DNA from: an uncultured Flavobacteriales bacterium
GTDB taxonomy: Bacteria > Bacteroidota > Bacteroidia > Flavobacteriales_G > JALEGO01
NCBI GenBank assembly: GCA_964403835.1
Contig: CAYOHR010000001.1
Coordinates: forward strand, 5,862-69,861
DNA length: 64,000 nucleotides
Reading direction: 5' to 3'
Shown: positions 1 through 18,561 of the stretch, piece after piece
How positions within the stretch are numbered: position 1 is the first letter of the stretch
Layout: every line of letters begins with the position of its first letter
Translations under genes and position numbers: made by a program
The notes under the pieces: model-generated
Told to the model about the DNA's origin: nothing
Databases searched by the model: none
The model's input: the letters and a program-made list of their open reading frames with translations, nothing else

Positions 1-3000
1 AGTGGTCCTGGAGCTAAGATGGTTGGCAATATAACTCCGGGAGTAAGTTCTCGTTTCAACTTTGGCACCCCTACTTTTACTCCTTCGGTAGATTTACCTA
101 TGACAAATTTTACGGCAACCGGCCGGTTTACAGTAGGCGCCGAACTTTTGGTATTGCATCCAAATGCTTTTGTTTCAGGATATTTTTCTTCGCAAGTATT
201 GGCAGAAAATACTAGTAAAAATCCATCTTTTGGTTATATGCATTCCGAAGAAGGACAAAAAAACAATAGTGCCATTATGGATTTTAACCGTGAAAACGAT
301 GGAGGATTTACTCCCAACACGTTAAATATGCCCATAACCAATTACACGTATGATGTTTATGGTGTTTCCGGACAAGGAATTGGAGGAAGTTATAGACCTG
401 TTAGAAATGATATAGGCTATGTTTTTGATGCCGAAAGCTATTCAACCAGTGGAGATTTTTCATTAAGTGTTGAACTTGGAGTTGGGAATTCATTCCATGC
501 AGGAGGCGATGTTATGGTAAATACGGTAAATACGTATTCAAAACCATGGACAAATGACAACAAAGCCTCAAATTTATTGGCATTTCGTGCTACAGGAGCA
601 GATGACACATACGAAAAATTTTACTTTAAAGAAGCTTCCGAAAAAACGGTTGATCAAAACGCTAATTGGATTCCTTCCATTGGGGGTTATGAACCGGTTC
701 GAATCCAATTAAAAGAAAACAGCAAATACAATGTAGAGGGCTCTAATCAATTTATCGATAATAATAACGTTACTAAAGCTATTCCAAGCAATAACTACAA
801 AGCTATTCGTGATCCTCGCAGTCAGGTTATTTCTTATTTAACTTGGCAAGAAATGGCTGATTTTGGACTGGTTAACACGCTTAATCCAAGTAATTATCCA
901 AGTCATCACATTGCTGAAATATCTACATTAAATCCTTCGGGACAAAGATACGTGTATGGTATTCCGGCCTACAATAAATCTCAAAAAGAAGTAACTTTTG
1001 CAGTTGGTCAAACAGCAGCCTATGGCAATGGTCATACGGGCGATTGTCAATCAGGTTTAGTTAATTATACCGAGGGTATTGATAATAGCATGTCGAATAA
1101 ATTAGGTATTGATAATTATTACACCTCTACCACTACCCCTGCCTATGCGCACGCATACCTGCTTACCTCTGTTTTAAGTAACGATTATATTGATGTTGAT
1201 CAGGTAAGAGGCCCTAGTGATAACGATTTTGGATCATATACTAACTTTTATTATTCTAAAATCCCAAATTATAAATGGAGAACGCCCTTTCAGGATGCCA
1301 ATTATTCAGAAGGTTTAAAATCTGATAAAATGGACGATAAAGCCAGTTATATTTATGGTGAAAAAGAGCTTAATTACTTAGATTCTATTGTAACCAAAAA
1401 TCACATTGCCATTTTTTATAAAGATAATCGCGAAGATGGGTTTGGAGTAAAAGGAGAAGACGGAATATTAGAACCTGCAGTAGCTCAAAAAAAATTGACA
1501 AAAATAAGTCTGTTTTCTAAGCCGGATTATCGAAAAAATGGTGTTAATGCGGTTCCTTTAAAAGAAGTTCATTTCGAATATGATTATACTCTTTGTCCAG
1601 GCCTGCCAAACAACATAAATAATGGTGGTAAATTAACTTTAAAAAAGATATATTTCACCTATCAAAGCTCCTTTAAGGGCAAGTTAAATCCTTACGAATT
1701 TGTTTATTCTGATTTTAACCCGAGTTATAATATAAAAAACTATGACCGATGGGGCAATTATAAACCAAATCCAATCACTGGTAATTGCGCTATTTTAGAC
1801 TCTATTACAACCGCTGAGTTTCCTTATGCTGAGCAAAACCAAACTAAAGCAAATAAATATGCAAGTGCTTGGTCTTTAACAGGAATTAAATTGCCTTCCG
1901 GAGGAACCATGAATGTGGAATATGAAAGTGATGATTATGCGTATGTTCAAAATAAAAGGGCAGGGCAAATGTTTAAAATTGTGGGCAGTTCTCCAACCGT
2001 TCCCAATAGTTCAACTAATATTTCAACCTCACCGGCACTTCTCCCATTAAGTAATAACAGTGAAAAAAATCACTATTTAATTTTTGAATTACAACCTGGA
2101 TTTACAGATATTGATGAATATTTTAAAGATATTGATTTACTTTATTTCCGCTTTTTAATGTTGTTTGACAACACCAATAGTAAATATGACTATGTTTCAG
2201 GATATGCCGATTTAGGCACTAATAATCAGTCTACTAAAGGGGTTGTAAATATTGGTGGCGTTAGTTATGGTTATATAAAAATTAAATCTGTTTCTTTGGG
2301 TGACAATGGAAGTAATGCTGATTATAACCCTATTTGTAAAGCCGCTTTGCAATTTGGCCGATTACATTTATCCAAATTTATTTGGGATCAGCCGGGCATT
2401 TCTGACAACCTAGGTTTTGGAAAACAGATATTAGATGCCATTATTAATTCAAGCTTTGCTAAAAACATTGGCGAAACCATTAAAGGCCCTAACAAAAGTA
2501 TATGGGATAAAAGCCGAGGAAGAGATTTTATTGCTCAAAAATCCTTTTTCAGACTTAATAATCCAAATAAAAAGAAATTAGGAGGCGGTTGCCGCGTAAA
2601 AAAAATATATGTGAATGATGAATGGAGTACCATGACTCAAAACCAACATACATCAAACACTTATGGCCAACAATACTATTATAATCTTGAAGACGGAACT
2701 TCAAGCGGTGTTGCAGCCTATGAACCCCAGTTAGGAGGTGATGAAAACTCAATGAAACGGCCTGTTTTTTTCAAGCAGGAAAACACACTTGTCCCTGATG
2801 AGCAATTTTATCACGAAGAACCCTTTGGTGAAGCTTTCTTCCCATCACCAACCGTTGGGTATAGCATGGTTACCGTTAAAAATTTAGATAGACCTAATGT
2901 AAGCAGGCATGCTACCGGAAAAACCGTACATGAATATTATACATCGAAAGATTTTCCAACTATTACAAAACATACCTCTGTCGATTCTAAACATCACAAA

Positions 3001-4758
3001 TCAGACCCATTTAGTTTATCTTCTTTGTTTTCTATTAATGTGAAAGATTACATGACTGCTAGTCAGGGTTACTTGGTAGAGTTAAATGACATGCACGGAA
3101 AAGAAAAGGCACAAAAAATATTTGCCGAAAATAAAACAAGCCCAATAAGTGCTATTACCTATAAATATAAACAAGATCCGTATCTTGAAAATGCAAACAG
3201 ATTGCGAAATAATGCCCCTGTGATAGATCAGGAAGGAAATGTTTCTGAAAAAGAAATTGGCGTTTTTGTAGATGTGGTTGCCGACATGAGACAACAAAGA
3301 ACTGAAATGGCTAGTTATGGCGCTCAGCTTAACTTAGATGCGTTTTTTATTCCGCCTTTCTTTTTTATTCCACTACCTACCGTTTGGCCTTCGTATACAA
3401 GTGAAGCAACTCAGTTTAGAAGTGCTGTAACAACCAAAGTAGTACAAAAATTTGGTATGTTAGAAGAAACCATTGCCGAAGATTTAGGTTCAATTATTAG
3501 TACAAAAAATATTGCTTATGAAGCAAATACAGGCACTCCAATAATTAATCAGGTTACCACTAATTTTAATGATTTAGTTTACAATTCAACCCTACCAGCA
3601 TATTGGTTTTATGATGGAATGGGCTTGGCTTATAAAAACATTAATTTAAGCATGAAAAATGTATCGTTTAACAGCAGTGGTATTGCTACCGTTAATAACG
3701 CTACTACTTTTGCCGAAGGGGATGAACTTGCTCTATCAACAGGCGAAAAAGCTTGGGTTACCGCTGTAACGGCAAATACTATTAAATTACAAAAGAAAGA
3801 TGGGCAAGCTGTAAGTGGAACTTTTGATATTCGAGTACTTAAATCGGGTAGAAAAAATATTTTATCGGCAGATATGGCTACTATCAGTACCCTTACCAAC
3901 CCTTTAAATAATATTAAAAATAATATTTATGAAAATGTGTTGCACGCTTCTGCCATTGAATATTCGCAAATTTGGAGAACGTACTGCAACTGCATAGATC
4001 CAAGTTTAACCAACAATGATTTTAACTCTCTTATATTAGGAGTTCAAGGAAATTGGAGTCCTGTTAGAAGCCATGCGCACTTAGCAGGTCGAACACAAAG
4101 TAATTACAATAACCAAACCAATATCCGAAAAGACGGGGTATTTACCTCTTTTTCTCCCTTTTATAAATTAGATCCTAATAAAAAATGGGATAGAGATGCA
4201 CAAAATTGGACTTTTATAAGTCAAATTACCGAGTATACTCCTTATGGGCAAGAACTTGAAAGCAAAGATGCTTTAAACATATATTCTTCGGCCATTTTCG
4301 GTTATAATAGCACCATAGCTACTGCCGTTGGATCAAATACCAGACATCGTGAATTAGGGTTTGACAATTTTGAAGATTATGATTATAATCTATGTATTGA
4401 TGGGCATTTTAAATTTCCATCTAACGTGTCTATCAATAACACAAATGCACATTCAGGTACAAAAAGTTTAAAAGTATCAAGCGGAACACCCGTTGAAATG
4501 TCGAAAGATATTGTTGCTTGTGACTTTAGTGATTGCAACGTAGTATTAAATGGAGCAGATATTGGAAATAAATTTGTTATTAGCGTTTTTGGAGGTACCG
4601 GTCCGTACGAATTTGATTGGGAAATTTTAAGTGGCTCACCTACTATTTTACCTTCCATTAACCAAAATAGTATTGATGTTTCCGGGTCATCCTATTCAAT
4701 TACCGTTAAGGTAACTGATTATAAAGGATGTTCAATTATTAAGACGTATAATAAGTAA
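1..4758 (+). CDS. Giant secreted/surface protein, 5'-partial (continues upstream of the window); divergent YD/Rhs-like hairpin motifs; C-terminal SprB/Ig-type repeat; function unknown
   Basis: Frame 1 is open from nt 1 (SGPGAK precedes the first ATG at 19), so the true start is outside the window. 1579 aa are visible. Motifs: VHFEYDY, IYFTYQ, PSGGTMNVEYESDDYAY, YYYNLEDGTSSG, ITYKYKQD. The C-terminus is GGTGPYEFDW...VKVTDYKGC. I saw no enzyme or toxin motif. Confidence 0.7.
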   Translation, partial: SGPGAKMVGNITPGVSSRFNFGTPTFTPSVDLPMTNFTATGRFTVGAELLVLHPNAFVSGYFSSQVLAENTSKNPSFGYMHSEEGQKNNSAIMDFNRENDGGFTPNTLNMPITNYTYDVYGVSGQGIGGSYRPVRNDIGYVFDAESYSTSGDFSLSVELGVGNSFHAGGDVMVNTVNTYSKPWTNDNKASNLLAFRATGADDTYEKFYFKEASEKTVDQNANWIPSIGGYEPVRIQLKENSKYNVEGSNQFIDNNNVTKAIPSNNYKAIRDPRSQVISYLTWQEMADFGLVNTLNPSNYPSHHIAEISTLNPSGQRYVYGIPAYNKSQKEVTFAVGQTAAYGNGHTGDCQSGLVNYTEGIDNSMSNKLGIDNYYTSTTTPAYAHAYLLTSVLSNDYIDVDQVRGPSDNDFGSYTNFYYSKIPNYKWRTPFQDANYSEGLKSDKMDDKASYIYGEKELNYLDSIVTKNHIAIFYKDNREDGFGVKGEDGILEPAVAQKKLTKISLFSKPDYRKNGVNAVPLKEVHFEYDYTLCPGLPNNINNGGKLTLKKIYFTYQSSFKGKLNPYEFVYSDFNPSYNIKNYDRWGNYKPNPITGNCAILDSITTAEFPYAEQNQTKANKYASAWSLTGIKLPSGGTMNVEYESDDYAYVQNKRAGQMFKIVGSSPTVPNSSTNISTSPALLPLSNNSEKNHYLIFELQPGFTDIDEYFKDIDLLYFRFLMLFDNTNSKYDYVSGYADLGTNNQSTKGVVNIGGVSYGYIKIKSVSLGDNGSNADYNPICKAALQFGRLHLSKFIWDQPGISDNLGFGKQILDAIINSSFAKNIGETIKGPNKSIWDKSRGRDFIAQKSFFRLNNPNKKKLGGGCRVKKIYVNDEWSTMTQNQHTSNTYGQQYYYNLEDGTSSGVAAYEPQLGGDENSMKRPVFFKQENTLVPDEQFYHEEPFGEAFFPSPTVGYSMVTVKNLDRPNVSRHATGKTVHEYYTSKDFPTITKHTSVDSKHHKSDPFSLSSLFSINVKDYMTASQGYLVELNDMHGKEKAQKIFAENKTSPISAITYKYKQDPYLENANRLRNNAPVIDQEGNVSEKEIGVFVDVVADMRQQRTEMASYGAQLNLDAFFIPPFFFIPLPTVWPSYTSEATQFRSAVTTKVVQKFGMLEETIAEDLGSIISTKNIAYEANTGTPIINQVTTNFNDLVYNSTLPAYWFYDGMGLAYKNINLSMKNVSFNSSGIATVNNATTFAEGDELALSTGEKAWVTAVTANTIKLQKKDGQAVSGTFDIRVLKSGRKNILSADMATISTLTNPLNNIKNNIYENVLHASAIEYSQIWRTYCNCIDPSLTNNDFNSLILGVQGNWSPVRSHAHLAGRTQSNYNNQTNIRKDGVFTSFSPFYKLDPNKKWDRDAQNWTFISQITEYTPYGQELESKDALNIYSSAIFGYNSTIATAVGSNTRHRELGFDNFEDYDYNLCIDGHFKFPSNVSINNTNAHSGTKSLKVSSGTPVEMSKDIVACDFSDCNVVLNGADIGNKFVISVFGGTGPYEFDWEILSGSPTILPSINQNSIDVSGSSYSITVKVTDYKGCSIIKTYNK

Positions 4759-4763
4759 CAAAA

Positions 4764-6866
4764 ATGATTTTAAAACATAACATAAAAATTTCCTCTATAA
4801 ATTTATTTTTAATTGGAATATTCTGTTTTTTCGGTTATTCAATACAAGCTCAAAACTGCGGGTTAATAAATGCCTATGGTAATGCAGGCACTACTAAGTT
4901 TTTGGATGATCTTTTTTACGATGCTACCAATAACGAATTTGCAGGAGTGGGTAGATATGGTGATAAAATGTTTTTTACAAAAACAGGTGCTTCAGGAAAT
5001 GCTATTTTTACAAAAATTTATGATCGGAGATATCACCCAACTTCTATTATTAAAACCGGATCTAATTTCTTAATCCTTGCCGACTCTTCTGTTAGTAGTG
5101 CAAAAAAAGGAGATATTTTTTTAATGAGAACAGATAATGCCGGGCAAATTTTATGGTCAAAAAGATATTCCACACCAAACAGAGACCGAAATGCAAAAAT
5201 TATTGAGGTAGGTCCTAATCAATATTTCATATTATTTAATAAAACCAATATGGGTACCATTGAAGATTTATTTATCATTAAAGTTGATGGCTCAGGTTCT
5301 GTGATATGGAAAAGAGAATATAATTTTGGAAGTGATGATGAATTTTATAATTACATACCCAATGGCACAGGTGGTGTAGTAATGGTCGGAGGATTAAATT
5401 CCGGAACTCGCTCTGGTATTTTAGTAGAAGTAAATGGCAACGGAACAATAAGTCCCGGAAAGTCAAAGAGAATAAGAAATGCACAGTCAAATTTGATCAG
5501 CGAATTTTCTAATATTATTAAAACAACTGGAGGGTATTTAACTACCGGCGAAATTCCAAATCCTACTAATTCTTTCTCTATCGATTTGAGCCTTAAAAAA
5601 TTTGATACCAATTTTAATTTATTATGGAATAAAACCATTACGGTTAATACTACTGATTATCCCTTTATTGCTTTTAATGGTTTATCCGATGATGCTTCCG
5701 GAAATTTTTATGTTTGCTTAAAACAACCCATTTCGGGCGGAACGGTGGCTAAAATTCTTAAGTTTTCTAGCACAGGAGCTTTCAAATGGGCGAAAGAATT
5801 AAAAGGAATATCCTCCGTAAATTTGAAACAAATTAATAATGCATCTAGTAACAATATCATTCTATACGGAAATTACTCAAAAACAGGAGCGCAAGACTCT
5901 TTTCTGATTGCACGAACGGATACGTCTCTTGCAACATGCTTAACCGTACCAAGCAGCATTACTATTCAAGCGCCTTCTTCTTATACCGTAAGCGATTTAA
6001 ATTATACTGTTGGAGACAGTGCTTTAGTCATAATATCAGAAAACATTACTGAATCATCTGTAAGTTTACCTCCTTTTGATTTATGTAATACTTTTCTTGG
6101 CTGTAACGTTACAGGTGATTTTACATTTACATCTAATACATGTGTCGGGCAACCTATTCAATTTACAAATTTATCAAGAAACGCTAATGCACAAGCGCTT
6201 ACCCAATACAAATGGAATTTTGGTGAAGGAACTATTCAATCAGGTGTGGCTTCACCCGTTTTTTCTTATAGTGCAGCAGGCACTTACCTTGTAACATTAA
6301 TTGTTGGGTATGAGGAAAATTGCAATAATTGTTATGATACCGTACAAAAACAAATTATTATTTCAACCACTTGCGGAGGTTTAGATTGTGAAGAGTGTAT
6401 TGGTTCTTTTGCTCCAATACCCGGAAAAAAATATGTTATCAGTGCTTGGGCCAAAGAAGCGAATGCCCCTGCAACTAAAACAAGCTATACCACGCCTAAA
6501 ATACATGTACAATTTTTACCCGGTGGATTTGCAGGCCCTTTTAGCCCAAAAGGCTTAATTATTGATGGGTGGCAGCGTATTGAAGAGGTGTTTACAATTC
6601 CTTCTAATGCAACTAATATTAAATTGAGGCTTACCTCAACCAGCGGAGATGTTTATTATGATGATATTCGTATTTTTCCGTTTGATGGCAATATGAAATC
6701 ATTTGTCTATGACCCTGTTACATTGCGCCTTTCAGCAGAATTAGACGAGCAAAATTATGCTACTTTTTATGAATATGATGAAGAAGGAAAGCTAGTTAGG
6801 GTAAAAAAGGAAACTGAAAAAGGTGTAATGACCATTCAAGAAAACAAAACTTATCTTAAAAAATAA
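4764..6866 (+). CDS. Secreted protein: beta-propeller-type (SBBP-like) repeats + PKD domain + C-terminal jelly-roll-like region ending in a YD repeat
   Basis: Starts 5 nt after the upstream stop. Signal peptide LFLIGIFCFFGYSIQA/QN. At least six repeats of the type IFLMRTDNAGQILWSKRY / LFIIKVDGSGSVIWKREY. PKD signature YKWNFGEG...AGTYLVTLIV. C-terminal ATFYEYDEEGKLVRVKKETEKG. Confidence 0.8.
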   Translation: MILKHNIKISSINLFLIGIFCFFGYSIQAQNCGLINAYGNAGTTKFLDDLFYDATNNEFAGVGRYGDKMFFTKTGASGNAIFTKIYDRRYHPTSIIKTGSNFLILADSSVSSAKKGDIFLMRTDNAGQILWSKRYSTPNRDRNAKIIEVGPNQYFILFNKTNMGTIEDLFIIKVDGSGSVIWKREYNFGSDDEFYNYIPNGTGGVVMVGGLNSGTRSGILVEVNGNGTISPGKSKRIRNAQSNLISEFSNIIKTTGGYLTTGEIPNPTNSFSIDLSLKKFDTNFNLLWNKTITVNTTDYPFIAFNGLSDDASGNFYVCLKQPISGGTVAKILKFSSTGAFKWAKELKGISSVNLKQINNASSNNIILYGNYSKTGAQDSFLIARTDTSLATCLTVPSSITIQAPSSYTVSDLNYTVGDSALVIISENITESSVSLPPFDLCNTFLGCNVTGDFTFTSNTCVGQPIQFTNLSRNANAQALTQYKWNFGEGTIQSGVASPVFSYSAAGTYLVTLIVGYEENCNNCYDTVQKQIIISTTCGGLDCEECIGSFAPIPGKKYVISAWAKEANAPATKTSYTTPKIHVQFLPGGFAGPFSPKGLIIDGWQRIEEVFTIPSNATNIKLRLTSTSGDVYYDDIRIFPFDGNMKSFVYDPVTLRLSAELDEQNYATFYEYDEEGKLVRVKKETEKGVMTIQENKTYLKK

Positions 6867-6921
6867 TTCTCAATCCGTTTTTCATCTTTTTTTTATTACT
6901 TTGCATTCGAAATTGTTTTTT

Positions 6922-7116
6922 ATGAAAAATATTCTTTCCGCCTTTTTAGTAGTTATTTGTTGTCTTTCTTTCTCTTGCAAAAAGTGTTCAACCTGCACAT
7001 ATACTGATTCTGCAAAGGCTGTTACTACTACTTCTGAATTCTGTAGTACCGGGCATGTTTATAAGAATCAATTAGACCAATACGAGAAATCGGGTTGGAA
7101 ATGTGTAGATAAATAA
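6922..7116 (+). CDS. Small Cys-rich lipoprotein (64 aa)
   Basis: The ATG at 6922 gives MKNILSAFLVVICCLSFSC (lipobox LSFSC). The mature part has CKKCSTC...C...C. The track start at 6901 is a TTG extension. Confidence 0.55.
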   Translation: MKNILSAFLVVICCLSFSCKKCSTCTYTDSAKAVTTTSEFCSTGHVYKNQLDQYEKSGWKCVDK

Positions 7117-7303
7117 TGGTTTAAAACTATTATTTAAACTGAATCTACTTAAAATTAAATCTTAATTGTTTCCCTAATTTTGAAGGGCATGCCTATCGGT
7201 AATTAATGCAAAACCATTAATTATTAGGTATATAGCTTTTCCGATTTTCCGTTATACCGCCGGGGCTAAAGCTAGCAAAACTTGGATTTAATAATTCTAT
7301 AAA

Positions 7304-7891
7304 ATGGAAAATTACAAAGAACTAATTGAAAAAATTAAAATTGAGATAACGGGGGACAAATTTCTCATTAATCAATTAAAAAAAACAAAAGAATTATTGA
7401 ATTCCAATTCAATAAGTTCTTTAGAATCCAATACAAATCTCGCTTATTGGTTATATGTTTATGGACATGAAAATTTGGCTTTAAAATTATGCAATGTTCT
7501 TTCAACAACCGATTTTGATGGAAAATTTGATAAGTGGACTTGGGTAGAATATTCCATTTCACTTGCTATAATTATTTATGAGCAAAAAAAGTTAATAGAT
7601 AATGTAAATGCTTTATCTTCCATTTTAACTACACCCTACGACTCTATTGACAAGGAAAAAAAATTATTGAATGAGAAAGCACTTAATCGGCGTTTAAATG
7701 GTGATTTATTGTATACCGCTGAAATTGAGGAAGCCATAGATGATAAAAATGCTGAAGAAGAAATAGAATATCGGTTTTTGCAATTACAAGAACTATGTTT
7801 TATTTATGCAAAAGGAGGATCTAAAAAATTTCCGAGAGAGAAAGTAAAAAATGAAATTTCTGAAAATCTTAAAAAGATTAAAAGGAATTGA
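7304..7891 (+). CDS. Hypothetical protein (195 aa), possible immunity-type protein
   Basis: Clean ATG ORF in the AT-rich island with no enzymatic motif. The helical-repeat-like core NLAYWLYVYGHENLALKLCNVL...WTWVEYSISLAIIIYEQ recalls small immunity-associated families (from memory, unverified). Confidence 0.55.
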   Translation: MENYKELIEKIKIEITGDKFLINQLKKTKELLNSNSISSLESNTNLAYWLYVYGHENLALKLCNVLSTTDFDGKFDKWTWVEYSISLAIIIYEQKKLIDNVNALSSILTTPYDSIDKEKKLLNEKALNRRLNGDLLYTAEIEEAIDDKNAEEEIEYRFLQLQELCFIYAKGGSKKFPREKVKNEISENLKKIKRN

Positions 7892-7988
7892 TCATTAATG
7901 GTTTGCAAGCAACTAGAGCTAAATTAGAAGCAAAAGAGAATTATTGCATAAAGCTCATATGAAACTCAGTTGCTAATCTTAAAGTATA

Positions 7989-8363
7989 ATGAACATGGAA
8001 TATATGGATTATATTTTTTTATGGTTAGGTAAAACTGATAAACCGGAAACCGAATTTAACAATTATTTTAAATTAGACTATTCTAATGAAAATAAAATAT
8101 GTGGTTTTTGCATTGATATTGATCAAAAATGGTATGATGAAGACTTTATTGGATATTTGAAATTCGCAAATATTAAGAATATTTTAGAAATTTTAGATGA
8201 AGTCCCTATTAACCCATCTGAAAAAGACAAAGTACTCCAAAAGTGTAATGAAATTGACTTAAAAAAAGCAAATGCAGTCTATTGGTATTCAGGACTTATA
8301 GCTCCCAATTATGATAAAGATTATAACGGATTAAAATACATAGGAAGATATTTATTAGATTAA
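7989..8363 (+). CDS. Imm22-like immunity protein (124 aa)
   Basis: IFLWLGKTDKPETEFNNYFKLDYS...CIDIDQKWYDEDFIGY matches my recollection of the Imm22 family pattern (h-h-LW-h-G, Y-h-x-h-D-Y, YDEDF). Not confirmed by a search. Confidence 0.55.
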   Translation: MNMEYMDYIFLWLGKTDKPETEFNNYFKLDYSNENKICGFCIDIDQKWYDEDFIGYLKFANIKNILEILDEVPINPSEKDKVLQKCNEIDLKKANAVYWYSGLIAPNYDKDYNGLKYIGRYLLD

Positions 8364-8440
8364 TGGTAATTCCGCCTTTGGATTATCTTATAAGCACTTC
8401 ATAAGGCAAGGGTTTTAGCGTTTTCATGTTATAAAATTTT
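8341..8440 (+). repeat. Direct repeat copy A (covers the last 7 codons + stop of the Imm22-like gene and downstream spacer)
   Basis: 8341-8396 matches 10051-10106 with 2 mismatches over 56 bp. After a 30-bp insertion (8397-8426) the match resumes at tgttataaaattt (8427-) versus tgttataaattt (10107-). Confidence 0.9.
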
Positions 8441-8732
8441 TAAAAACCAAAACAACTAAAAAACTAGTGACAAACAAGAAAGGTTTAAAGGAGACACAAG
8501 AGAAATTGTACTTTATGATGGAAAAATAATAGAGTAATTTATGCCCCCGGCTCTATAAGAGGTAAATCTATACCCATGGACATAAAAGATAGGGCTAGTG
8601 ATACTTTAGATGATATTGAGTTATTTTTACAAAAATAGGATACCTTTATTCAAAGTAAAAGAGGAGAGTATAAAAAACGCCCACAAACAATGAGTATATA
8701 CCTATGACAGATTCCCTTTTTTAAAATAAAAA

Positions 8733-9041
8733 ATGATCGTTAAAATACATAATAATCTTAAGAAACAATCAACCATAATGGATGTTAATATTGAGATTAA
8801 ATTTATCAATGAAATACTCAAATTAGATAGGAGAGAAGTAGCTGAAAATGAAACTATTTTTTTTGAAATTCTTGAAATTCTTTCCACATCACATACACAA
8901 TCAATATTTGAAATAAACGAAACAAATATTAAAAAATTTCGAAAACTTAGTAATTGGATTAGAAGTTGGAAAAGAGAATTTAAATCGAAAGAAAATCTTT
9001 TGGAAGTCATTGCTTTAAATATGGAAGCAATTTTTTATTGA
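8733..9041 (+). CDS. Hypothetical protein (102 aa), weakly supported
   Basis: ORF on the same strand as its neighbours, ending at the start of the next ORF. A mirror antisense ORF of identical length (8702..9010) exists, so the coding status is uncertain. The region is very AT-rich. Confidence 0.3.
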   Translation: MIVKIHNNLKKQSTIMDVNIEIKFINEILKLDRREVAENETIFFEILEILSTSHTQSIFEINETNIKKFRKLSNWIRSWKREFKSKENLLEVIALNMEAIFY

Positions 9042-9076
9042 AAAAGATTAATTTTGTAAAAACCCCAAGCCCAAAA

Positions 9077-9640
9077 ATGCTTAAAACAATACCAATACTC
9101 CTGTTAATTTTTTTTACCAATTGTTCTCAAACAAACATCAATGATATGCAACCAACCATGAAATACGAAACTGCATTCAATTTATCTGTGAGTTATGGTG
9201 AGTCAAAACACCTTGATATTAAGGAAAGACTTAAGGTTAAAACCGACCAAAGGTTTAGGTTTGACTTTAATTCAACCGATATTTCTTATGATAAACGAGA
9301 CTCAACATTGGTCATCCGTTCTTGTATTGAGCGTGAAGGGGCGCCCAAAAGGGAAGATTTTCTTGCTGTTTTAGGAAATTTGAATCAAAAATATGCCCAA
9401 GAACTTGCTAATGGCTACTTAGAGTATGATGAATCTGCCTTAGAAGTAGACGGAATCGATCCGTATAGATTGAATATAAGGTATGATATTAAAGACGGAA
9501 GTTTTGATAAAAAAAATTTCATTGCAAAAGTGAATGAACTGCATATAGCCGCTAAAAGATGGGGTAACAAATATTATGATGCAGTTTATGAAGAACTGAA
9601 TAAAACATGGAAAAAAGACAGTACATTTAATAAAGAATGA
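9077..9640 (+). CDS. Hypothetical lipoprotein (187 aa)
   Basis: The ATG at 9077 gives MLKTIPILLLIFFTNCSQ (signal peptide + Cys). The track start at 9038 is a TTG extension. No recognisable domain. Confidence 0.6.
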   Translation: MLKTIPILLLIFFTNCSQTNINDMQPTMKYETAFNLSVSYGESKHLDIKERLKVKTDQRFRFDFNSTDISYDKRDSTLVIRSCIEREGAPKREDFLAVLGNLNQKYAQELANGYLEYDESALEVDGIDPYRLNIRYDIKDGSFDKKNFIAKVNELHIAAKRWGNKYYDAVYEELNKTWKKDSTFNKE

Positions 9641-10024
9641 ATGCCTCCCCACCCTATTCCAATTCTAGATATCGCAATAATAATAAACCAGTCTACTATG
9701 ATAATTTTTTCAACTTTCGAGGAATTGCTAAATAAACTATCAATTCTTGATGATGATGCTTTCTTTTATATCCCAATTGGTATTCCATTTAATCAGTTTA
9801 CTAAAATTGCATACATGAAGGAAGATGATGTGGATGAGTCTATAGAGATTAATGATGACTTAGTTCCGATTGAGATTCACAATGCAAACATGAAAAGCCT
9901 TATAGAAGTGACCACATTTAGAGATATTATTGATCTTTATTCAAAAAAGCATCCGAATGCTTCTAATGATGAATTCTTTCATGCACTTCTCTACTATTTA
10001 GAGCATGATGATTTTCTTGAATAA
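9641..10024 (+). CDS. Hypothetical small protein, possible immunity-associated family
   Basis: ATG directly follows the upstream TGA. An internal ATG at 9698 (MIIFSTFEELL) is an alternative start. The acidic middle and C-terminus FHALLYYLEHDDFLE resemble a small family I recall from immunity-gene neighbourhoods (unverified). Confidence 0.5.
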   Translation: MPPHPIPILDIAIIINQSTMIIFSTFEELLNKLSILDDDAFFYIPIGIPFNQFTKIAYMKEDDVDESIEINDDLVPIEIHNANMKSLIEVTTFRDIIDLYSKKHPNASNDEFFHALLYYLEHDDFLE

Positions 10025-10050
10025 TGAGGTTCTGCTGAAAAAAAGCAAAT

Positions 10051-10120
10051 TAGGAAGATATTTATTAGATTAATGGTAATTCCGCTTTTGGATTATCCTA
10101 TAAGCATGTTATAAATTTGA
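10051..10120 (+). repeat. Direct repeat copy B (non-coding copy of the Imm22-like gene 3' end + spacer)
   Basis: See copy A. It lies 27 nt downstream of the stop of 9641..10024 and retains ...GGAAGATATTTATTAGATTAA (GRYLLD*) without an attached gene. Confidence 0.9.
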
Positions 10121-10195
10121 TTTTTTTTAAACAAAAATGATACTATCTTTAGTTACTAGCAACTTTTATTAATTATTTAGAATCGGCAGCTTAAA

Positions 10196-10744
10196 TTATC
10201 CAAAAACACAATCTTTAACTGTTGCTTCGCCAATTTTTGTTAACTCTGTTTCAACATCCGGAATTATGATATTTGCAATTTCTGAAGTCAAGTATTTTAG
10301 TCCTTTTTGATATAGAAATTGCAAAAGTTGGTCAAAAGATTTGGCAGGAAAAATTTCTGGTTTTTCAAGGTTATGAACTGCAATTGTAATATCATCAACC
10401 ACTCTATGGCTTTGAAAAACAAGCATAAAATAAGGAAGTATTCTGCTAATTTTTAAATGTATAACTTCAATTGCACCTTCCTCCCTTACTGCATTTTCAA
10501 AATCCTTTGTGGTTAGAATAGATGAGCTTGGGTTTTTTGTGGAAATAATTTGATAGGTAAAACAGTAATCGTAGTTATAATCGGTTAGGTTAAGCACATT
10601 ATACGGAGGGAAAAGCGCTATTAGTTCGTCATAAATACCTTTTGTGTTTGACCACATTACCTTTTTAAGAATTGCGTAGTCGTTTTTACGATAAACACCT
10701 TCTATTAATGATAGGATGTCATTCGGTATTTTCATCTCATCCAA
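10196..10744 (-). CDS. Hypothetical protein (182 aa)
   Basis: Clean ATG ORF 18 nt downstream of the 233-aa gene on the same strand. No recognisable motif. Confidence 0.6.
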   Translation of the reverse strand: MDEMKIPNDILSLIEGVYRKNDYAILKKVMWSNTKGIYDELIALFPPYNVLNLTDYNYDYCFTYQIISTKNPSSSILTTKDFENAVREEGAIEVIHLKISRILPYFMLVFQSHRVVDDITIAVHNLEKPEIFPAKSFDQLLQFLYQKGLKYLTSEIANIIIPDVETELTKIGEATVKDCVFG

Positions 10745-10762
10745 ACCTTTATTAGCAATGTT

Positions 10763-11464
10763 TTAAACTATTAACTCATCCGAATCGGCTTGGAATTTAA
10801 AGCCTAAGCGTTTGCCTGTTTTAAGCGGCATATTTTTTGATATTTCTTCCATTTCGTATATAGAAAGTTCTTTCATAGCGTCATAGGAAGGAACAAACAA
10901 ATCAAAATCTAAGGCATATAATAAAAGGGATTCAATTACTTTTCTCAACTCATCCCGATCAATAACAGCATTTGAAAAATCGTTGTATAAAAACCCCATT
11001 TGTCGTTTTCCTTCTAAAAAATAATGGTTTTCTTTATTCACAAAAAGGCGAGCAATTAAATATCCCACATCATTTTTCCGATCATAAATAAACGAGTCTT
11101 TCAAAAAATTATACACATAAATAATTCCGCAATACGAACGTGTATCATCATCCTGAATATAAGATGTTTTCCACATACCATGACTTTTATCAAACTGAAA
11201 AACATTGGAATGCATGTGAAAAATAAGAACATCTCCGGCAATAATAATCTCCAATTCAAAATCGTTTTGTATTCTATAATCCAACGGAATATTGGGATCC
11301 AGGTTAGGCAACGATCTTCTTAACTCAGAAATAACCTCAGCCACAACTTGAACCATATCGTTAAATACTTTTTTCGTGTTTCGATATACCAATTGTTTCA
11401 TGGTAGCCTTTTCTGCAACCACAGTTTGCAGGGATATAAAAGATGAAGAGGGTTTCTTTGTCAT
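10763..11464 (-). CDS. Conserved Bacteroidota hypothetical protein (233 aa)
   Basis: The sequence (ILIFHMHSNVFQFDKSHGMWK...YCGIIYVYNFL...GYLIARLFVNKENHYFLEGKRQMGFLYNDF...TGKRLGFKF) matches a conserved hypothetical family I recall from Flavobacteriia. Function unknown. Confidence 0.7.
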   Translation of the reverse strand: MTKKPSSSFISLQTVVAEKATMKQLVYRNTKKVFNDMVQVVAEVISELRRSLPNLDPNIPLDYRIQNDFELEIIIAGDVLIFHMHSNVFQFDKSHGMWKTSYIQDDDTRSYCGIIYVYNFLKDSFIYDRKNDVGYLIARLFVNKENHYFLEGKRQMGFLYNDFSNAVIDRDELRKVIESLLLYALDFDLFVPSYDAMKELSIYEMEEISKNMPLKTGKRLGFKFQADSDELIV

Positions 11465-11490
11465 TATCAGCTATTTATAATTGTATAAAA

Positions 11491-12969
11491 TTAATAGGCT
11501 CGTGCAAAAACTACTTTTTTGTTCGATGGTTTACCTGAGTATATGCATACGCCTTTTTCTTCAAAAGAATCAAGCAAAATACAACGTATGGTTGCTTTGG
11601 TTTCTTCTTTTATTTTTTCTTCGGTTTCCGGCGTTCCATCCCAGTGCGCTAATACAAAGCCTCCTTTTTCATCTAAAGTTCGCTTAAACTCATCGTATGT
11701 GCTTACCTGATGGGTGTTTTCTTCACGAAACAGTTTGTTTTTATTCATTAAGTTATGCTGTATATCTTCCAACATATCTTTTACGGTATTTGAGAGCGAT
11801 TCCATGGCAATACTTGTTTTTTCTAAGGTATCTCTACGCACCACTTCAACCGTATTATTCTCCAAGTCTTTTGGGCCAATAGCAATTCTAACAGGCACCC
11901 CTTTAAACTCGTACTCAGCAAATTTCCAACCGGGTTTTTGTGTATCTCGGTTATCGTATTTTACGCTTATTCCCAGGGCTTCTAATTGTTTTTTAATTTC
12001 GTTTGCTTTTTCTGAAATAGTCATTAATTGGTCCTCCCCCTTATAAATAGGAACTATGACTACTTGAATGGGCGCTAATTTTGGTGGTAAAACCAAGCCT
12101 AAATCATCGGAATGAGACATAATCAAGGCCCCCATTAAACGCGTAGAAACGCCCCACGAAGTTGCCCATACATATTCATTTTTCCCTTCTTTTGAGGCAA
12201 ATTTTACATCAAATGCCTTGGCAAAATTTTGTCCCAAAAAGTGAGAAGTGCCTGCCTGTAAAGCTTTCCCGTCTTGCATTAATGCCTCAATGCAAAATGT
12301 TTCTAATGCGCCGGCAAAACGCTCATTGGGCGATTTTACTCCTTTTATAACCGACATGGCCATAAATTTTTCGGCAAACTCGGCATACACATATAGCATT
12401 TTTGTTGCTTCTTCAACGGCTTCCTGCTCACTGGCATGCGCCGTATGACCTTCTTGCCACAAAAACTCGGCCGTTCTTAAAAACAAGCGCGTTCTCATTT
12501 CCCAACGCACCACATTCGCCCATTGATTAATGAGTATAGGTAAATCGCGGTATGACTGTATCCAATTTTTATAAGTTTTCCATATAATAGCTTCCGAAGT
12601 AGGCCGAACAATTAATTCTTCTTCTAACTTGGCTTCCGGGTCAACCATTAATTTACCGGGCCGATCAGGGTCTGTTTTTAAACGATAATGCGTTACAACG
12701 GCACATTCTTTTGCAAAACCTGCCGCGTTTTTTTCTTCTGCTTCAAATAAACTTTTAGGGACAAAAAGAGGGAAATAAGCATTTACATGGCCCGTTTCTT
12801 TAAACATTTTATCGAGTTGCTGTTGCATTTTTTCCCATATTGCATACCCATACGGTTTAATAACCATACAACCTCGCACTTCCGAATTTTCAGCTAAATC
12901 TGCCCGTTTTACAATCTCATTATACCATTCAGAATAGTTCTCTTTTCTACTAGGAAAATCCTTTGCCAT
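11491..12969 (-). CDS. proS: Proline--tRNA ligase (archaeal/eukaryote-like class II type)
   Basis: 492 aa. N-terminus [37 protein letters not shown], with class II motifs and a C-terminal ProRS domain. Confidence 0.95.
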
Positions 12970-14572: not shown

Positions 14573-15925
14573 TTAATTTTTTGATTTTACCCGTATGGCC
14601 CCTTTAAAATGGAGGGCTGTTTTAAAATGATTATTTTTCCAATGATATGAATTTTCTGATAGCTCGGCAGAGGTAAGAATGCCTGATTCCGGAAGGGGTT
14701 CTAAAATAATTTCTGCATCGTGTTGGTGTAATTTTACATATTCAATTCTTTGATCAAATTTTTTTGAATAGTTCAACAATATAGGATACTGAGAAAAAAC
14801 AGAATACCCATTGCCGCATAACATAAGCAGTAAGGCGATGTATGGCATCTTAAAAGAATTTGTTTTTGAACTCATCAAAAATACAAATATGAATAGGCAT
14901 AATAGCGTTATTGGCAAAGTAATTCGATCCGGCCCGGCATCATGCATGGTATATGCCACCGGGAAATGAAAAATTAAAACAAACGCTAAAATAGTGAAGA
15001 GTCCAACGATAAAAAGAGAAATATATGACCACGTTGAAATGCTTTGAATTAGAACATTTCGTTTCATTTTTAAGAGGGGGGCAAATAAGAATGCCGAAAA
15101 AAATAAAAAGATAATTTTTAATCCCCCTGTTTTCAGATAAAGATATGCTGCCAAAACATCCATTTTTAATACCGTTAAACCATTGGCTGCCGCATACGAT
15201 AATTTCCTATCCTGCGTGCCTTCTCCCATATTGCTGAGTATAAATGACCCTGCTAAAAGTAAAAAAGCTAATATTAATTTATTTCTATACCGGGTTTTTC
15301 TTGCTAAAACACACATAATCAATAAAATACCCAAACATAAAATACAGAGTGGTTCGCTGGTTCCTCCTAAATAAATAAAAGAAAAAGCGAGTATTAAATA
15401 GGTGCCAGATGTAGCCTTTGGAGATAAAATTTTACTGATTCCAAGCATTAAAAAACCAAAACTCCATAAATACGTGGTAGAAGCACAATGCCAAAACCAA
15501 ATTTCGCCAATATTAAACGTTCCTAAAAACAGGGTGTTTACAAACAAAACACTGTACAACCACACATGCATAGGCTTTTCGGCGGAAATTATTTCTTTTA
15601 AAAAAGAAAAACTAGCATATATTAAAAATAAAAGCCCAAACAGCTGAAACCCAAAAAAATTAGCAGGCGCTTGGTAAAATGATAAAACAAAATGGTTTAA
15701 AAATACAGAAGTCCAACGGCTGCAATGAATATAATATTCTTGAATAGTCGCTTCAACAGGTCCGAATTTTTGAGCAGCATTCCAAAAATAAAAATCATCA
15801 ATGGCAAATCGATTGTAATAGGCAATAATCCCGTATAAAATTAAAAAACTGAAAGATGTAAAAATAGCCAGTGATACGAATAACTTTTCCGTTAACCCCG
15901 ACTCATTCTTCAATTTTTTATCCAC
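14573..15925 (-). CDS. Polytopic integral membrane protein (>=10 predicted TM segments), function unknown
   Basis: Very hydrophobic ORF. The track start at 16000 overlaps the upstream gene by 83 nt. An in-frame GTG at 15925 or TTG at 15913 is more plausible. Confidence 0.65.
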   Translation of the reverse strand: MDKKLKNESGLTEKLFVSLAIFTSFSFLILYGIIAYYNRFAIDDFYFWNAAQKFGPVEATIQEYYIHCSRWTSVFLNHFVLSFYQAPANFFGFQLFGLLFLIYASFSFLKEIISAEKPMHVWLYSVLFVNTLFLGTFNIGEIWFWHCASTTYLWSFGFLMLGISKILSPKATSGTYLILAFSFIYLGGTSEPLCILCLGILLIMCVLARKTRYRNKLILAFLLLAGSFILSNMGEGTQDRKLSYAAANGLTVLKMDVLAAYLYLKTGGLKIIFLFFSAFLFAPLLKMKRNVLIQSISTWSYISLFIVGLFTILAFVLIFHFPVAYTMHDAGPDRITLPITLLCLFIFVFLMSSKTNSFKMPYIALLLMLCGNGYSVFSQYPILLNYSKKFDQRIEYVKLHQHDAEIILEPLPESGILTSAELSENSYHWKNNHFKTALHFKGAIRVKSKN

Positions 15926-16631: not shown

Positions 16632-17753
16632 ATGCCTCAACCCAACCATGATTTATTATACAAAATTGGCTTAACGCTGTTGCCTAAAATTGGCCCCATA
16701 AATTCGAAGCGTTTGCTAGCATACATGGGAAGTGCAGAGGCCGTCTTTAACGACCCCAAATCAACCCTTTTAAAAGTCCCGGGCATTGGTGAAATATTGG
16801 TAAAAAGCATTTTAGATGAACGAACAGAGGCTTTAAAACGCGCCGAAAAAGAACTGCTTTTTATTGAAAAATATGCCATTGATGTTCTTTTTTATTTAGA
16901 TAAACAATATCCGGAAAAATTAACCCATTGCGAAGATGGCCCCTTGTTATTATACAAAAAAGGCAATGGAAATTTTAATTCGTCGAAAATTTTAGCAGTG
17001 GTGGGAACCCGCAACGCCACTAAATATGGCAAAGAATATTGCGAAAAAATTATTTCAGACTTAGCTCATCATTCTGATTTATTAATTTTAAGCGGATTGG
17101 CTTCCGGCATAGATGTATGTGCGCACAAGGCTGCATTAGAGAACAATATCCCCACATCGGGTGTGTTAGGCCATGGCTTAGACCGAATTTATCCCCCTTC
17201 TCATCGAGAAACATCTTTAAAAATGTTAACCAGTGGTTGCTTAATTACCGAATTTATGAGTGAAACCAATCCGGATCGTGAAAATTTCCCGAAAAGAAAC
17301 CGCATTGTAGCCGGTATTTGTGATGCTTTATTAGTGATTGAGTCTGATATAAAAGGAGGTTCCATGATCACCGCCAAACTGGCCAGTGCCTACAACAGAG
17401 ATGTATTTGCGCTGCCCGGTCATGTAGACCATCAATACAGCAAAGGCTGCAACTATTTAATTAAAACAAATCAAGCTTCGTTAATAGTAGATGCGAGGGA
17501 TATTGAGCATATTATGGGATGGAACAGTCCAAAAAATAAAACAAAAGGTAACCAAACTGCTTTATTTGTAGACTTATCGGATGAAGAACAAAAAATAGTA
17601 GATTTATTAAAAGAAAAAGGAGATTTAAAAGTGGATCAAATTTCTTTATTTTTGGAATTAAAAATGAGCGATGTGCTTGCTTATTTATTAAATTTAGAGA
17701 TGAATATGATGGTTCGGGCACTGCCTGGTAAAATTTATAGTTTAGCTGTTTAA
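16632..17753 (+). CDS. dprA: DNA-processing protein DprA
   Basis: LLYKIGLTLLPKIGPINSKRLL...; Rossmann-like core AVVGTRNATKYG...SGLASGIDVCAHKAAL...GGSMITA. The ATG at 16632 is preferred over the TTG at 16617. Confidence 0.9.
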   Translation: MPQPNHDLLYKIGLTLLPKIGPINSKRLLAYMGSAEAVFNDPKSTLLKVPGIGEILVKSILDERTEALKRAEKELLFIEKYAIDVLFYLDKQYPEKLTHCEDGPLLLYKKGNGNFNSSKILAVVGTRNATKYGKEYCEKIISDLAHHSDLLILSGLASGIDVCAHKAALENNIPTSGVLGHGLDRIYPPSHRETSLKMLTSGCLITEFMSETNPDRENFPKRNRIVAGICDALLVIESDIKGGSMITAKLASAYNRDVFALPGHVDHQYSKGCNYLIKTNQASLIVDARDIEHIMGWNSPKNKTKGNQTALFVDLSDEEQKIVDLLKEKGDLKVDQISLFLELKMSDVLAYLLNLEMNMMVRALPGKIYSLAV

Positions 17754-17787
17754 AAAAGATTGTATTTTTACGCACAAAGTTTTTAAT

Positions 17788-18561
17788 ATGCCACGAAAAA
17801 GAATTGCTTTTTTAGGAAACAAAGATATTGGTTACGAGTGTTTTTATTATTTATTAGAAAACCGCGATGTGTTAGGTATTGATATTGCAGCGGTCATTAC
17901 CAACGATAAATCGCCTTTATTAAGCAAAGGAAAAAGCATTTTAAAACTAGCCAAAAAACATAATATTCCTACCTTAAAAAAATCGCATGATTTATTATCT
18001 ATTACAGACATAGATATTTTACTGAGTGTACAATACCATGACATTTTAAAAGAACAACAAATTAAGGTTGCTAAACAAATTGCCGTTAATTTACACATGG
18101 CTCCCTTGCCCGATTACAGAGGCTGCAACCAATTTTCTTTTGCCATATTAGATAATGCGAAAGAGTTTGGATCTACCCTGCACCGGATAGAAAAAGGAAT
18201 TGATACCGGCGATATTTTGTTTGAACACCGATTTATGATAGAACCCAATTCGACCGTGACCGAATTATACGAAAAAACCTATAAATCGGCTGTGTACCTT
18301 TTTAAATCTTCCATTAAGCGCATTGTGGATGGAGATTATGTACTGGTTCCTCAAAAAAGTTTAATAGCATTTAGGGGCAGTGCTTTTCATCAAAGAAAAG
18401 AGATAGATAAAATAAAAGAAATAGACTTAAGTTGGCCTACTGAAAAAATTAAAAAACAGGTTCGGGCTACGTACTTCCCCCCTTTTTCGCCCCCTTTTGC
18501 TTTGGTTGATGGAAAAAAAATTGATATTACTCCCGAATGGATCTTAGATAACCTGGATTAA
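17788..18561 (+). CDS. Formyltransferase-family protein (N-terminal formyl_trans domain only)
   Basis: NLHMAPLPDYRGCN (variant of the N-x-H-x-S-L-L-P-x-x-R-G motif) and IDTGDIL. 257 aa. Confidence 0.75.
   Translation: MPRKRIAFLGNKDIGYECFYYLLENRDVLGIDIAAVITNDKSPLLSKGKSILKLAKKHNIPTLKKSHDLLSITDIDILLSVQYHDILKEQQIKVAKQIAVNLHMAPLPDYRGCNQFSFAILDNAKEFGSTLHRIEKGIDTGDILFEHRFMIEPNSTVTELYEKTYKSAVYLFKSSIKRIVDGDYVLVPQKSLIAFRGSAFHQRKEIDKIKEIDLSWPTEKIKKQVRATYFPPFSPPFALVDGKKIDITPEWILDNLD

Follow-up and report, generated by a model that had tools for sequence, protein, structure and literature searches.

How does the end of an immunity gene, together with its downstream flank, come to stand on both sides of a block of unrelated small genes? 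The question is raised by a stretch of DNA from an uncultured Flavobacteriales bacterium (GenBank assembly GCA_964403835.1, contig CAYOHR010000001.1, positions 5,862 to 69,861 of the forward strand), which was analyzed over its full length of 64,000 nucleotides and is called the window in the following. An initial annotation, made from the letters alone, had noticed that the 3' end of an Imm22-like gene recurs behind a cassette of three open reading frames (ORFs). It had interpreted the repeat as the scar of an insertion or duplication by recombination at a conserved gene-end site, integron/attC-like or rAID-like, or, less excitingly, as a REP-like terminator element that overlaps a stop codon. 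Our analysis retains the first part of this proposal, a recombinational insertion or duplication at the Imm22 gene end that left an orphan copy behind, but not the integron/attC-like or rAID-like site. The repeat, designated R, is most likely a passive scar without a function as a site, and it is nested within a second gene-end duplication of the same geometry.

The repeat pair and the block between its copies

Nucleotides 8341-8396 (copy A) and 10051-10106 (copy B) are identical at 54 of 56 positions, the two mismatches being located at 8376 (C in A, T in B) and 8388 (T in A, C in B). A gap-free extension of the pair covers 64 nt at 92% identity. A segment of 30 bp (8397-8426) is private to copy A and has no counterpart in copy B, and the similarity then resumes with TGTTATAAAATTT in copy A (8427-8439) and TGTTATAAATTT in copy B (10107-10118). 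All of this agrees with the initial annotation. When both strands of the window were searched with up to three mismatches allowed, exactly two copies of R were found, compared with none in 100 shuffled sequences, and the pair is the sole high-identity dispersed direct repeat of the 64 kb. The core of R reads GGTAATTCCGCYTTTGGATTATC; the 23-nt core used for scans was GGTAATTCCGCNTTTGGATTATC.

Copy A is a gene end, as had been reported: it contains the last seven codons and the stop codon of ORF 7989..8363, which ends in …YIGRYLLD, and its first base is the second base of the Ile codon in this string. The ORF is an intact Imm22 gene (Table 1) whose true start is probably the ATG at 7995, and its C-terminus YIGRYLLD fits the conserved homolog ending YIGE[YF]xLD. 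The interval between the copies (8397-10050) comprises 1654 nt and holds the ORFs 8733..9041, 9077..9640 and 9641..10024 as well as a stretch of broken reading frames, so that the earlier description of its content is also confirmed.

The 30 nt specific to copy A start by repeating, nearly in tandem, the 10 nt that stand before them (CTTATAAGCA / CTTCATAAGGCA, within 8387-8426). Because of this near-tandem copy, the length difference may have arisen by local slippage in copy A rather than by a deletion in copy B. The A-specific nucleotides also contain the pair GTTTTAGC/GTTTTCAT.

Copy B as the remnant of a gene

The view of copy B as an orphan Imm22 gene end proved correct. It is untranslatable, and the repeat sets in 26 nt past the stop codon of ORF 9641..10024. 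However, the likeness to Imm22 reaches further left than had been seen. Nucleotides 10035-10050 (CTGAAAAAAAGCAAAT) match Imm22 positions 8258-8273 (CTTAAAAAAAGCAAAT) at 15 of 16 positions, on the same strand and in collinear order, and only 6 of the 127,586 16-mers of the window outside Imm22 match the Imm22 body equally well. The left edge of copy B is therefore not sharp, since the 16-mer match abuts the repeat across a deletion. The complete map of copy B thus reads as follows: 10035-10050 corresponds to 8258-8273, a deletion of 67 nt comes next, 10051-10106 corresponds to 8341-8396, and 10107-10118 corresponds to 8427-8439. Relative to copy A, it is also short by 30 nt and by 1 nt.

Read in the Imm22 frame, copy B contains stop codons, and the 67-nt deletion shifts the frame. 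The collinear 16-mer beside it thus identifies copy B as a gene remnant with a 67-nt deletion and not as a minimal att core. At the least, copy B represents the final 106 nt of an Imm22 gene and the flank downstream of it, and it looks like a decaying pseudogene stub, unlike a minimal recombination site.

An island of orphan immunity genes with a toxin remnant

Both copies of R lie within a region of 3.6 kb (7192-10759) between a 71-aa ORF and a gene pair consisting of ProRS and a 233-aa protein. The GC content is 0.27-0.30 between about 6900 and 10600, compared with 0.33-0.39 in both flanks. Five genes are co-oriented on the plus strand, namely DUF6707, Imm22, a 102-aa ORF (orf102), a 187-aa ORF (orf200) and DUF7716, separated by gaps of 97, 369, 35 and 0 nt. 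There is no intact toxin gene among them, only dead fragments. The neighbors outside the island are the 71-aa ORF, a 700-aa PKD protein, the 233-aa gene and ProRS.

Three of the five genes belong to families derived from toxin-immunity systems. Homologs of Imm22 with 67-69% identity are found directly 3' of Rhs/YD-shell toxin tips in VgrG-containing type VI secretion system (T6SS) loci, where they are followed by orphan Rhs-tip/immunity modules; one further homolog (locus L153) belongs to a small Imm51-Imm22 polyimmunity island amid housekeeping genes. In Salmonella, the DUF6707 family has been put forward as the candidate immunity protein for an Rhs-NucA_B effector (PMC11669294), and DUF7716 is predicted to confer immunity to an HNH/ColE7-like T6SS DNase effector (PMC13224477). 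The closest homolog of the DUF7716 gene, in metagenomic locus L093, is 83% identical at the amino acid and about 86% at the nucleotide level. The DNA homology (131-477 in L093) extends in the window from 9678, 20 nt before an ATG, exactly to the stop codon at 10024, and its onset in L093 lies just past a toxin stop codon. This ATG (9698) is probably the true start of the gene, and the annotated 5' extension (9641-9697) is then noncoding. In L093 the homolog stands directly 3' of an ORF ending in ...DHQDHKINHGLYHPDGVGG, which by eye looks like the end of an HNH-type toxin; this 40-residue fragment has no Pfam match. Both Imm22 and DUF7716 thus have homologs elsewhere that directly follow toxin ends, in toxin-immunity pairs.

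A remnant of the cognate toxin has survived in front of Imm22. It begins 3 nt past the DUF6707 stop codon and bears an 8-nt deletion and a frameshift. Its translation ...AKLEAKENYC/HKAHMKLSC, followed by a stop, corresponds to toxin ends of the form ...TKLEAKKIIAKHHKAHMKLKCK (…HKAHMKLKCK, stop), with an alignment score of 38.5 compared with 12.6±2.2 for shuffled sequences. The 97-nt spacer between DUF6707 and Imm22 is nearly all dead toxin 3' end. From the toxin-immunity-derived families and this surviving stub, we read the locus as an orphan-immunity island, or heterogeneous polyimmunity locus as described by Zhang et al. 2012 (PMC3482391), whose genes stem from toxin-immunity pairs that have lost their toxins.

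The stretch of broken frames (8460-8635) had no Pfam match, no hit among 1.84 billion representative proteins and no tblastn/tblastx similarity to the Rhs modules of the retrieved loci. Since none of these comparisons gave a homolog, we do not claim it as a toxin remnant. The signal-like segment of orf200 makes it a probable lipoprotein, as judged by eye; its AlphaFold model (pLDDT 36) was unusable. Scans of every ORF in the island against NCBIfam and PADLOC gave nothing relevant.

A second gene-end duplication around the island

The 3' end of the 233-aa gene is likewise present twice, once intact at the right edge of the island and once as an orphan at the left edge (Table 1). The two copies share about 71% identity with two single-nucleotide gaps, and the orphan copy, which lies 2 nt past the stop codon of the 71-aa ORF, contains in-frame stops. 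Used as a query against the window, the 73-mer scored 27 at 7119-7191 and 16 at the next-best position; 40 random 73-mers scored 12-18. In ten related Flavobacteriales/Bacteroidota loci, the 233-aa gene is found directly downstream of ProRS. To the left of this gene, nothing in the window is syntenic with these ten loci.

Due to the outer duplication, the island as a whole has the same kind of borders as the inner block, with an intact gene end, an insert and an orphan gene end. We found no motif common to the inner and the outer repeats, which is to be expected if each merely copies its local gene end.

Origin of the nested duplications

We favor the explanation that the two duplications are nested scars of displacement-type recombination, which combines a homologous anchor on one side with an illegitimate join on the other, and assign it a probability of roughly 0.55. 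A displacement model has been proposed for the T6SS immunity arrays of Vibrio cholerae and for Rhs loci (PMC5361080). Applied to our locus, the most parsimonious history is a single displacement event, in which incoming DNA would have carried its own Imm22 allele and flank as well as the 1.65-kb block (broken frames, orf102, orf200 and DUF7716). It would have paired homologously on the upstream side, and its non-homologous downstream end would have been joined illegitimately inside the resident Imm22 gene, cut at or before 8258. With such a join, the 3' stub of the resident gene and its flank would remain just beyond the new block. Copy A would then be the working Imm22 end with its native flank, and copy B the 3' region of the other allele with the same flank, which would since have lost 67 nt, 1 nt and probably also 30 nt to deletions. 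The divergence of about 4% between the copies would correspond to the allelic divergence between donor and recipient. An earlier round of the same process would have duplicated the 3' end of the 233-aa gene around the island.

We consider this model the best one because it fits the geometry at both levels and the toxin stub, because the orphan copies are fragments, and because neither a recombinase nor a shared site was found. Stubs of displaced genes are found at the junctions, from the toxin at 7894-7976, from Imm22 at 10035-10118 and from the 233-aa gene at 7119-7191. The order of events and the mechanism of anchor plus illegitimate join are what we infer from this arrangement.

Several points speak against displacement. 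A full-length upstream toxin gene, the usual conserved anchor of the process, is missing from the window, and a toxin, Rhs or T6SS family was detected neither in ORFs 19..4758 and 4764..6866 nor elsewhere in the window. The anchor must therefore have been DNA of the array itself. The 71% identity of the outer repeat implies that the event is very old or that the donor was divergent, and in the second case homologous anchoring would be inefficient. The geometry is equally expected from a single crossover or from site-specific integration, and copy A may have gained its 30 nt by an insertion, in which case copy B did not lose them. The copy count of R covers 64 kb of the genome. The nearest public relatives are distant, with at most 79% identity in ProRS and at most 55% in the 233-aa protein, so that the polarity and the number of events given here are tentative.

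Unequal crossing-over between the two 16-mers was also considered and rejected, since the entire block would then have to be present twice, and it is not. The 56 nt of near-identity could still allow RecA to delete the three-gene block or, rarely, to loop it out; this loss is likely the only present-day consequence of the repeat.

Alternative explanations

An illegitimate join would not be needed if two complete Imm22 modules had once flanked the block and the second had eroded to the 84-nt fragment. The modules could stem from a segmental duplication, from a Campbell-type single crossover of a circular fragment with an Imm22 end on it or from the independent acquisition of two near-identical alleles. 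The deletions in copy B (67, 30 and 1 nt) are what such erosion would leave, paralogous immunity genes are common in polyimmunity loci (PMC3482391), and a single crossover is the textbook route to an insert flanked by direct repeats. However, this history takes more events, with an extra duplication or acquisition and a deletion that ends no more than 10 nt from the DUF7716 stop codon. Nothing else of a second Imm22 body, nor a stub of its toxin, was found upstream of copy B. A circular donor that has R beside the block moreover presupposes the very structure that needs explanation. We thus regard an origin from two modules as possible but rather unlikely. R could also be the attachment site of a tyrosine recombinase that acts in trans, be it integron-, rAID-, Xer/dif-module- or CIME-like. 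The element would then bring along a replacement gene end, with copy A as attL and copy B as attR, and the outer repeat would have formed likewise at the 233-aa gene. Integration at gene 3' ends suits the geometry at both nesting levels, R contains a short imperfect inverted repeat (TAATTC-N7-GGATTA), and in Bacteroidales the rAID-1 arrays (10.1101/471110) have repetitive intergenic motifs alongside their orphan immunity genes. But an integrase domain was found neither in the ORFs of the island (7192-10759: DUF6707, Imm22, orf102, orf200, DUF7716 and the 182-aa ORF) nor elsewhere among 40 ORFs spread over the window, where Pfam scans revealed housekeeping functions but no integrase, recombinase or transposase. 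In a self-comparison, R was missing from the other gene junctions of the island (after DUF6707, orf102 and orf200), and it has no motif in common with the outer repeat. The GGTAATTC/GGATTATC hairpin of the initial annotation could not be upheld, as it lies outside the predicted minimum-energy fold of the repeat. Compared with dinucleotide shuffles, the folding of both copies was unremarkable (z -0.94 to -0.07 for RNA, -1.08 to +1.41 for single-stranded DNA on both strands), and an imperfect inverted repeat of 6 bp is expected by chance. The 23-nt core had no match in 185,579 species genomes (one each) or in a metagenome collection, in scans that detect exact matches only, and blastn found no counterpart of the island in plasmids or phages. 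Finally, copy B includes a further stretch of Imm22 coding sequence that is not contiguous with the first. An attachment site of any of these types is thus improbable.

The initial alternative of a REP-like terminator, or more generally of a terminator or promoter element that overlaps a stop codon and recurs after several genes, would account for the position at a gene end and for the short imperfect palindrome. Such an element should not be limited to two copies at the same locus with no exact core elsewhere in the genomes and metagenomes scanned. The fold is no better than that of shuffles, a stable stem and a T-run are lacking, no terminator-like site was found within 6800-11600, and the Rfam scan was negative, as was a tRNA scan of the window. 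In favor of a promoter, copy B (10087-10119) fits the Bacteroidetes -33/-7 consensus TTTG-N21-TAAATTTG, which copy A does not. This match was rejected because the pattern is no commoner than chance in the window (4 observed, 5.6 expected); it also faces no plus-strand gene. As 23 nt of R and the extra 16-mer are Imm22 coding sequence, we consider an element of this type very improbable. Somewhat less remote, though still quite doubtful, is the idea of a dedicated system that acts in trans and inserts integrase-less immunity cassettes at gene 3' ends in Flavobacteriales islands, replacing the gene ends. If this were true, R would be one of the sites of the system, and the gene-end duplications at both nesting levels would be the attL/attR footprints that it left.

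Features of the locus and further observations

Table 1. Coordinates of the features in and around the island (positions of the window)
Feature	Position	Strand	Description
Outer repeat, orphan copy	7119..7191	-	decayed last ~23 codons + stop of 233-aa gene
DUF6707 gene	7304..7891	+	PF20453, E 4e-41
Toxin remnant, last ~31 codons	7894..7976	+	homologous to toxin preceding Imm22 in loci L001, L003, L155
Imm22/DUF4284 immunity gene, intact	7989..8363	+	PF14112, E 1.6e-20
Repeat copy A	8341..8439	+	23 nt Imm22 3' end, 33 nt downstream, 30-nt A-specific 8397-8426, then TGTTATAAAATTT
Broken reading frames	8460..8635	+	KGDTREIVLYDGK… / …RVIYAPGSIRGKSIPMDIKD…
102-aa ORF (orf102)	8733..9041	+	no family; sole database match is its own copy
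187-aa ORF (orf200)	9077..9640	+	no family; N-terminal signal-like segment ending in Cys
DUF7716 gene	9641..10024	+	PF24832, E 4.6e-12
Repeat copy B	10035..10118	+	orphan untranslatable Imm22 3' fragment
182-aa ORF, inside island	10196..10744	-	no family; absent beside 233-aa gene in relatives
Outer repeat, intact copy	10760..10832	-	3' end of 233-aa gene (10763-11464, minus)

The non-coding part of R (8360-8396, TAATTCCGCCTTTGG…CTTATAA) resembles the leader of an orphan Rhs fragment in Flavobacterium branchiophilum (TAATTCCCCCTTTGG…CTTATAA; locus L155, leaders at 14855-14900 and 12145-12185). In frame, R reads LMVIPPLDYLIS and the leader reads AKLIIPPLGARGLI. The likeness is marginal, as it was equalled by 4 of 300 shuffles before correction for multiple tests. 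One of the F. branchiophilum Rhs leaders begins 43 nt past the stop codon of an immunity gene, and in L001 an Rhs-core repeat begins about 50 nt past the Imm22 stop codon. The repeats of the related Rhs arrays (L001, L003 and L155) were examined as candidate gene-end duplications and rejected, since they are Rhs-core fragments outside the immunity genes. GC-rich hairpin-like motifs (for example CCCGCGAAGCTCTGCTTCGTGGG and CCCCCTTCGGGGG) recur shortly after immunity genes or in Rhs fragments in the otherwise AT-rich toxin arrays of other Bacteroidota (L003 595-625 and 690-715; L093 485-525; L155 12150-12175).

Within the island, a perfect 9-bp inverted repeat, TAATTAATG-N6-CATTAATTA, is located at 7200-7223, just inside the left edge. 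The string ATTAATGG is present just past the DUF6707 stop codon (7894) and across the Imm22 stop codon in both copies of R (8359 and 10069); its enrichment at these three junctions is weak, not significant, and may reflect AT-richness. Outside the island, a direct repeat of 69 nt with 72% identity links 16801-16869, in the interior of a dprA-like gene, with 17751-17819, at the end of dprA and the start of the next gene; chance similarity of A-rich sequence probably accounts for it. ORF 19..4758 (>1579 aa) gave no sequence match in Pfam, NCBIfam or PDB and, as there is no in-frame stop in 1-18, probably extends beyond the left end of the window. ORF 4764..6866 encodes the 700-aa PKD/SBBP-like protein, which carries a C-terminal YD-repeat-like motif (FYEYDEEGKLVRVKKE).

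Comparison with known systems

In a Flavobacteriales lineage that has been little sampled, the locus is a small and clean example of the accumulation of orphan immunity genes. It also illustrates a route by which this accumulation proceeds: toxins shrink to a 3' stub, and blocks that are spliced in leave stubs of the genes they cut. Its nesting, with one insertion placed in an island that is older and had already cut into the end of a housekeeping-neighbor gene, supports applying the displacement model, proposed for T6SS loci of Vibrio and for Rhs loci, to polyimmunity islands that stand alone as well. At the same time, it cautions that gene-end repeats in immunity arrays are not always integron-like sites.

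Integron cassette arrays share with our locus the small, apparently promoterless genes in one orientation and a repeat that overlaps the end of an ORF. However, we found neither IntI nor attI, the repeat does not follow each cassette, and there is no attC-like hairpin of single-stranded DNA. The rAID-1 arrays (Ross et al. 2019, 10.1101/471110; PMC12247911) are closer in content, as they also consist of short co-oriented orphan immunity genes in Bacteroidota and show a GC skew. In contrast to these arrays, our locus has no XerD-like recombinase that we could find and no repeated intergenic motif; its sole repeat is a gene fragment that occurs twice. Genomic islands at gene 3' ends have the same succession of an intact gene end, an insert and an orphan gene end, which is seen here at both levels. 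Unlike in such islands, there is no integrase in or beside either insert and no perfect core, and the duplicated sequences are unrelated to each other.

The polyimmunity loci described by Zhang, de Souza, Anantharaman, Iyer and Aravind (2012, PMC3482391) are likewise tandem arrays of co-oriented genes from unrelated families, without an intact toxin and in ordinary surroundings, and the Imm51-Imm22 mini-island of locus L153 is comparable. Our locus differs from them in its small size, in its one 369-nt gap with broken frames and in the two ORFs that have no recognizable immunity family. The closest parallel in process is displacement in Vibrio cholerae T6SS and Rhs loci (Kirchberger et al. 2017, PMC5361080). 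There, too, orphan immunity genes form arrays and have homologs that are paired with toxins elsewhere, 3' stubs of toxins stand upstream of orphan immunity genes, and truncated resident genes lie past the insert. The differences are that neither a full-length toxin gene nor a T6SS gene adjoins our array, that the truncated resident is an immunity gene (in the outer duplication, the gene next to a housekeeping gene) rather than an effector, and that the lineage is one of uncultured-type Flavobacteriales. Both the kind of locus and the process are thus known, the present case being a further example, and no new mechanism is called for; its most informative additions are the nested outer duplication and the toxin stub.

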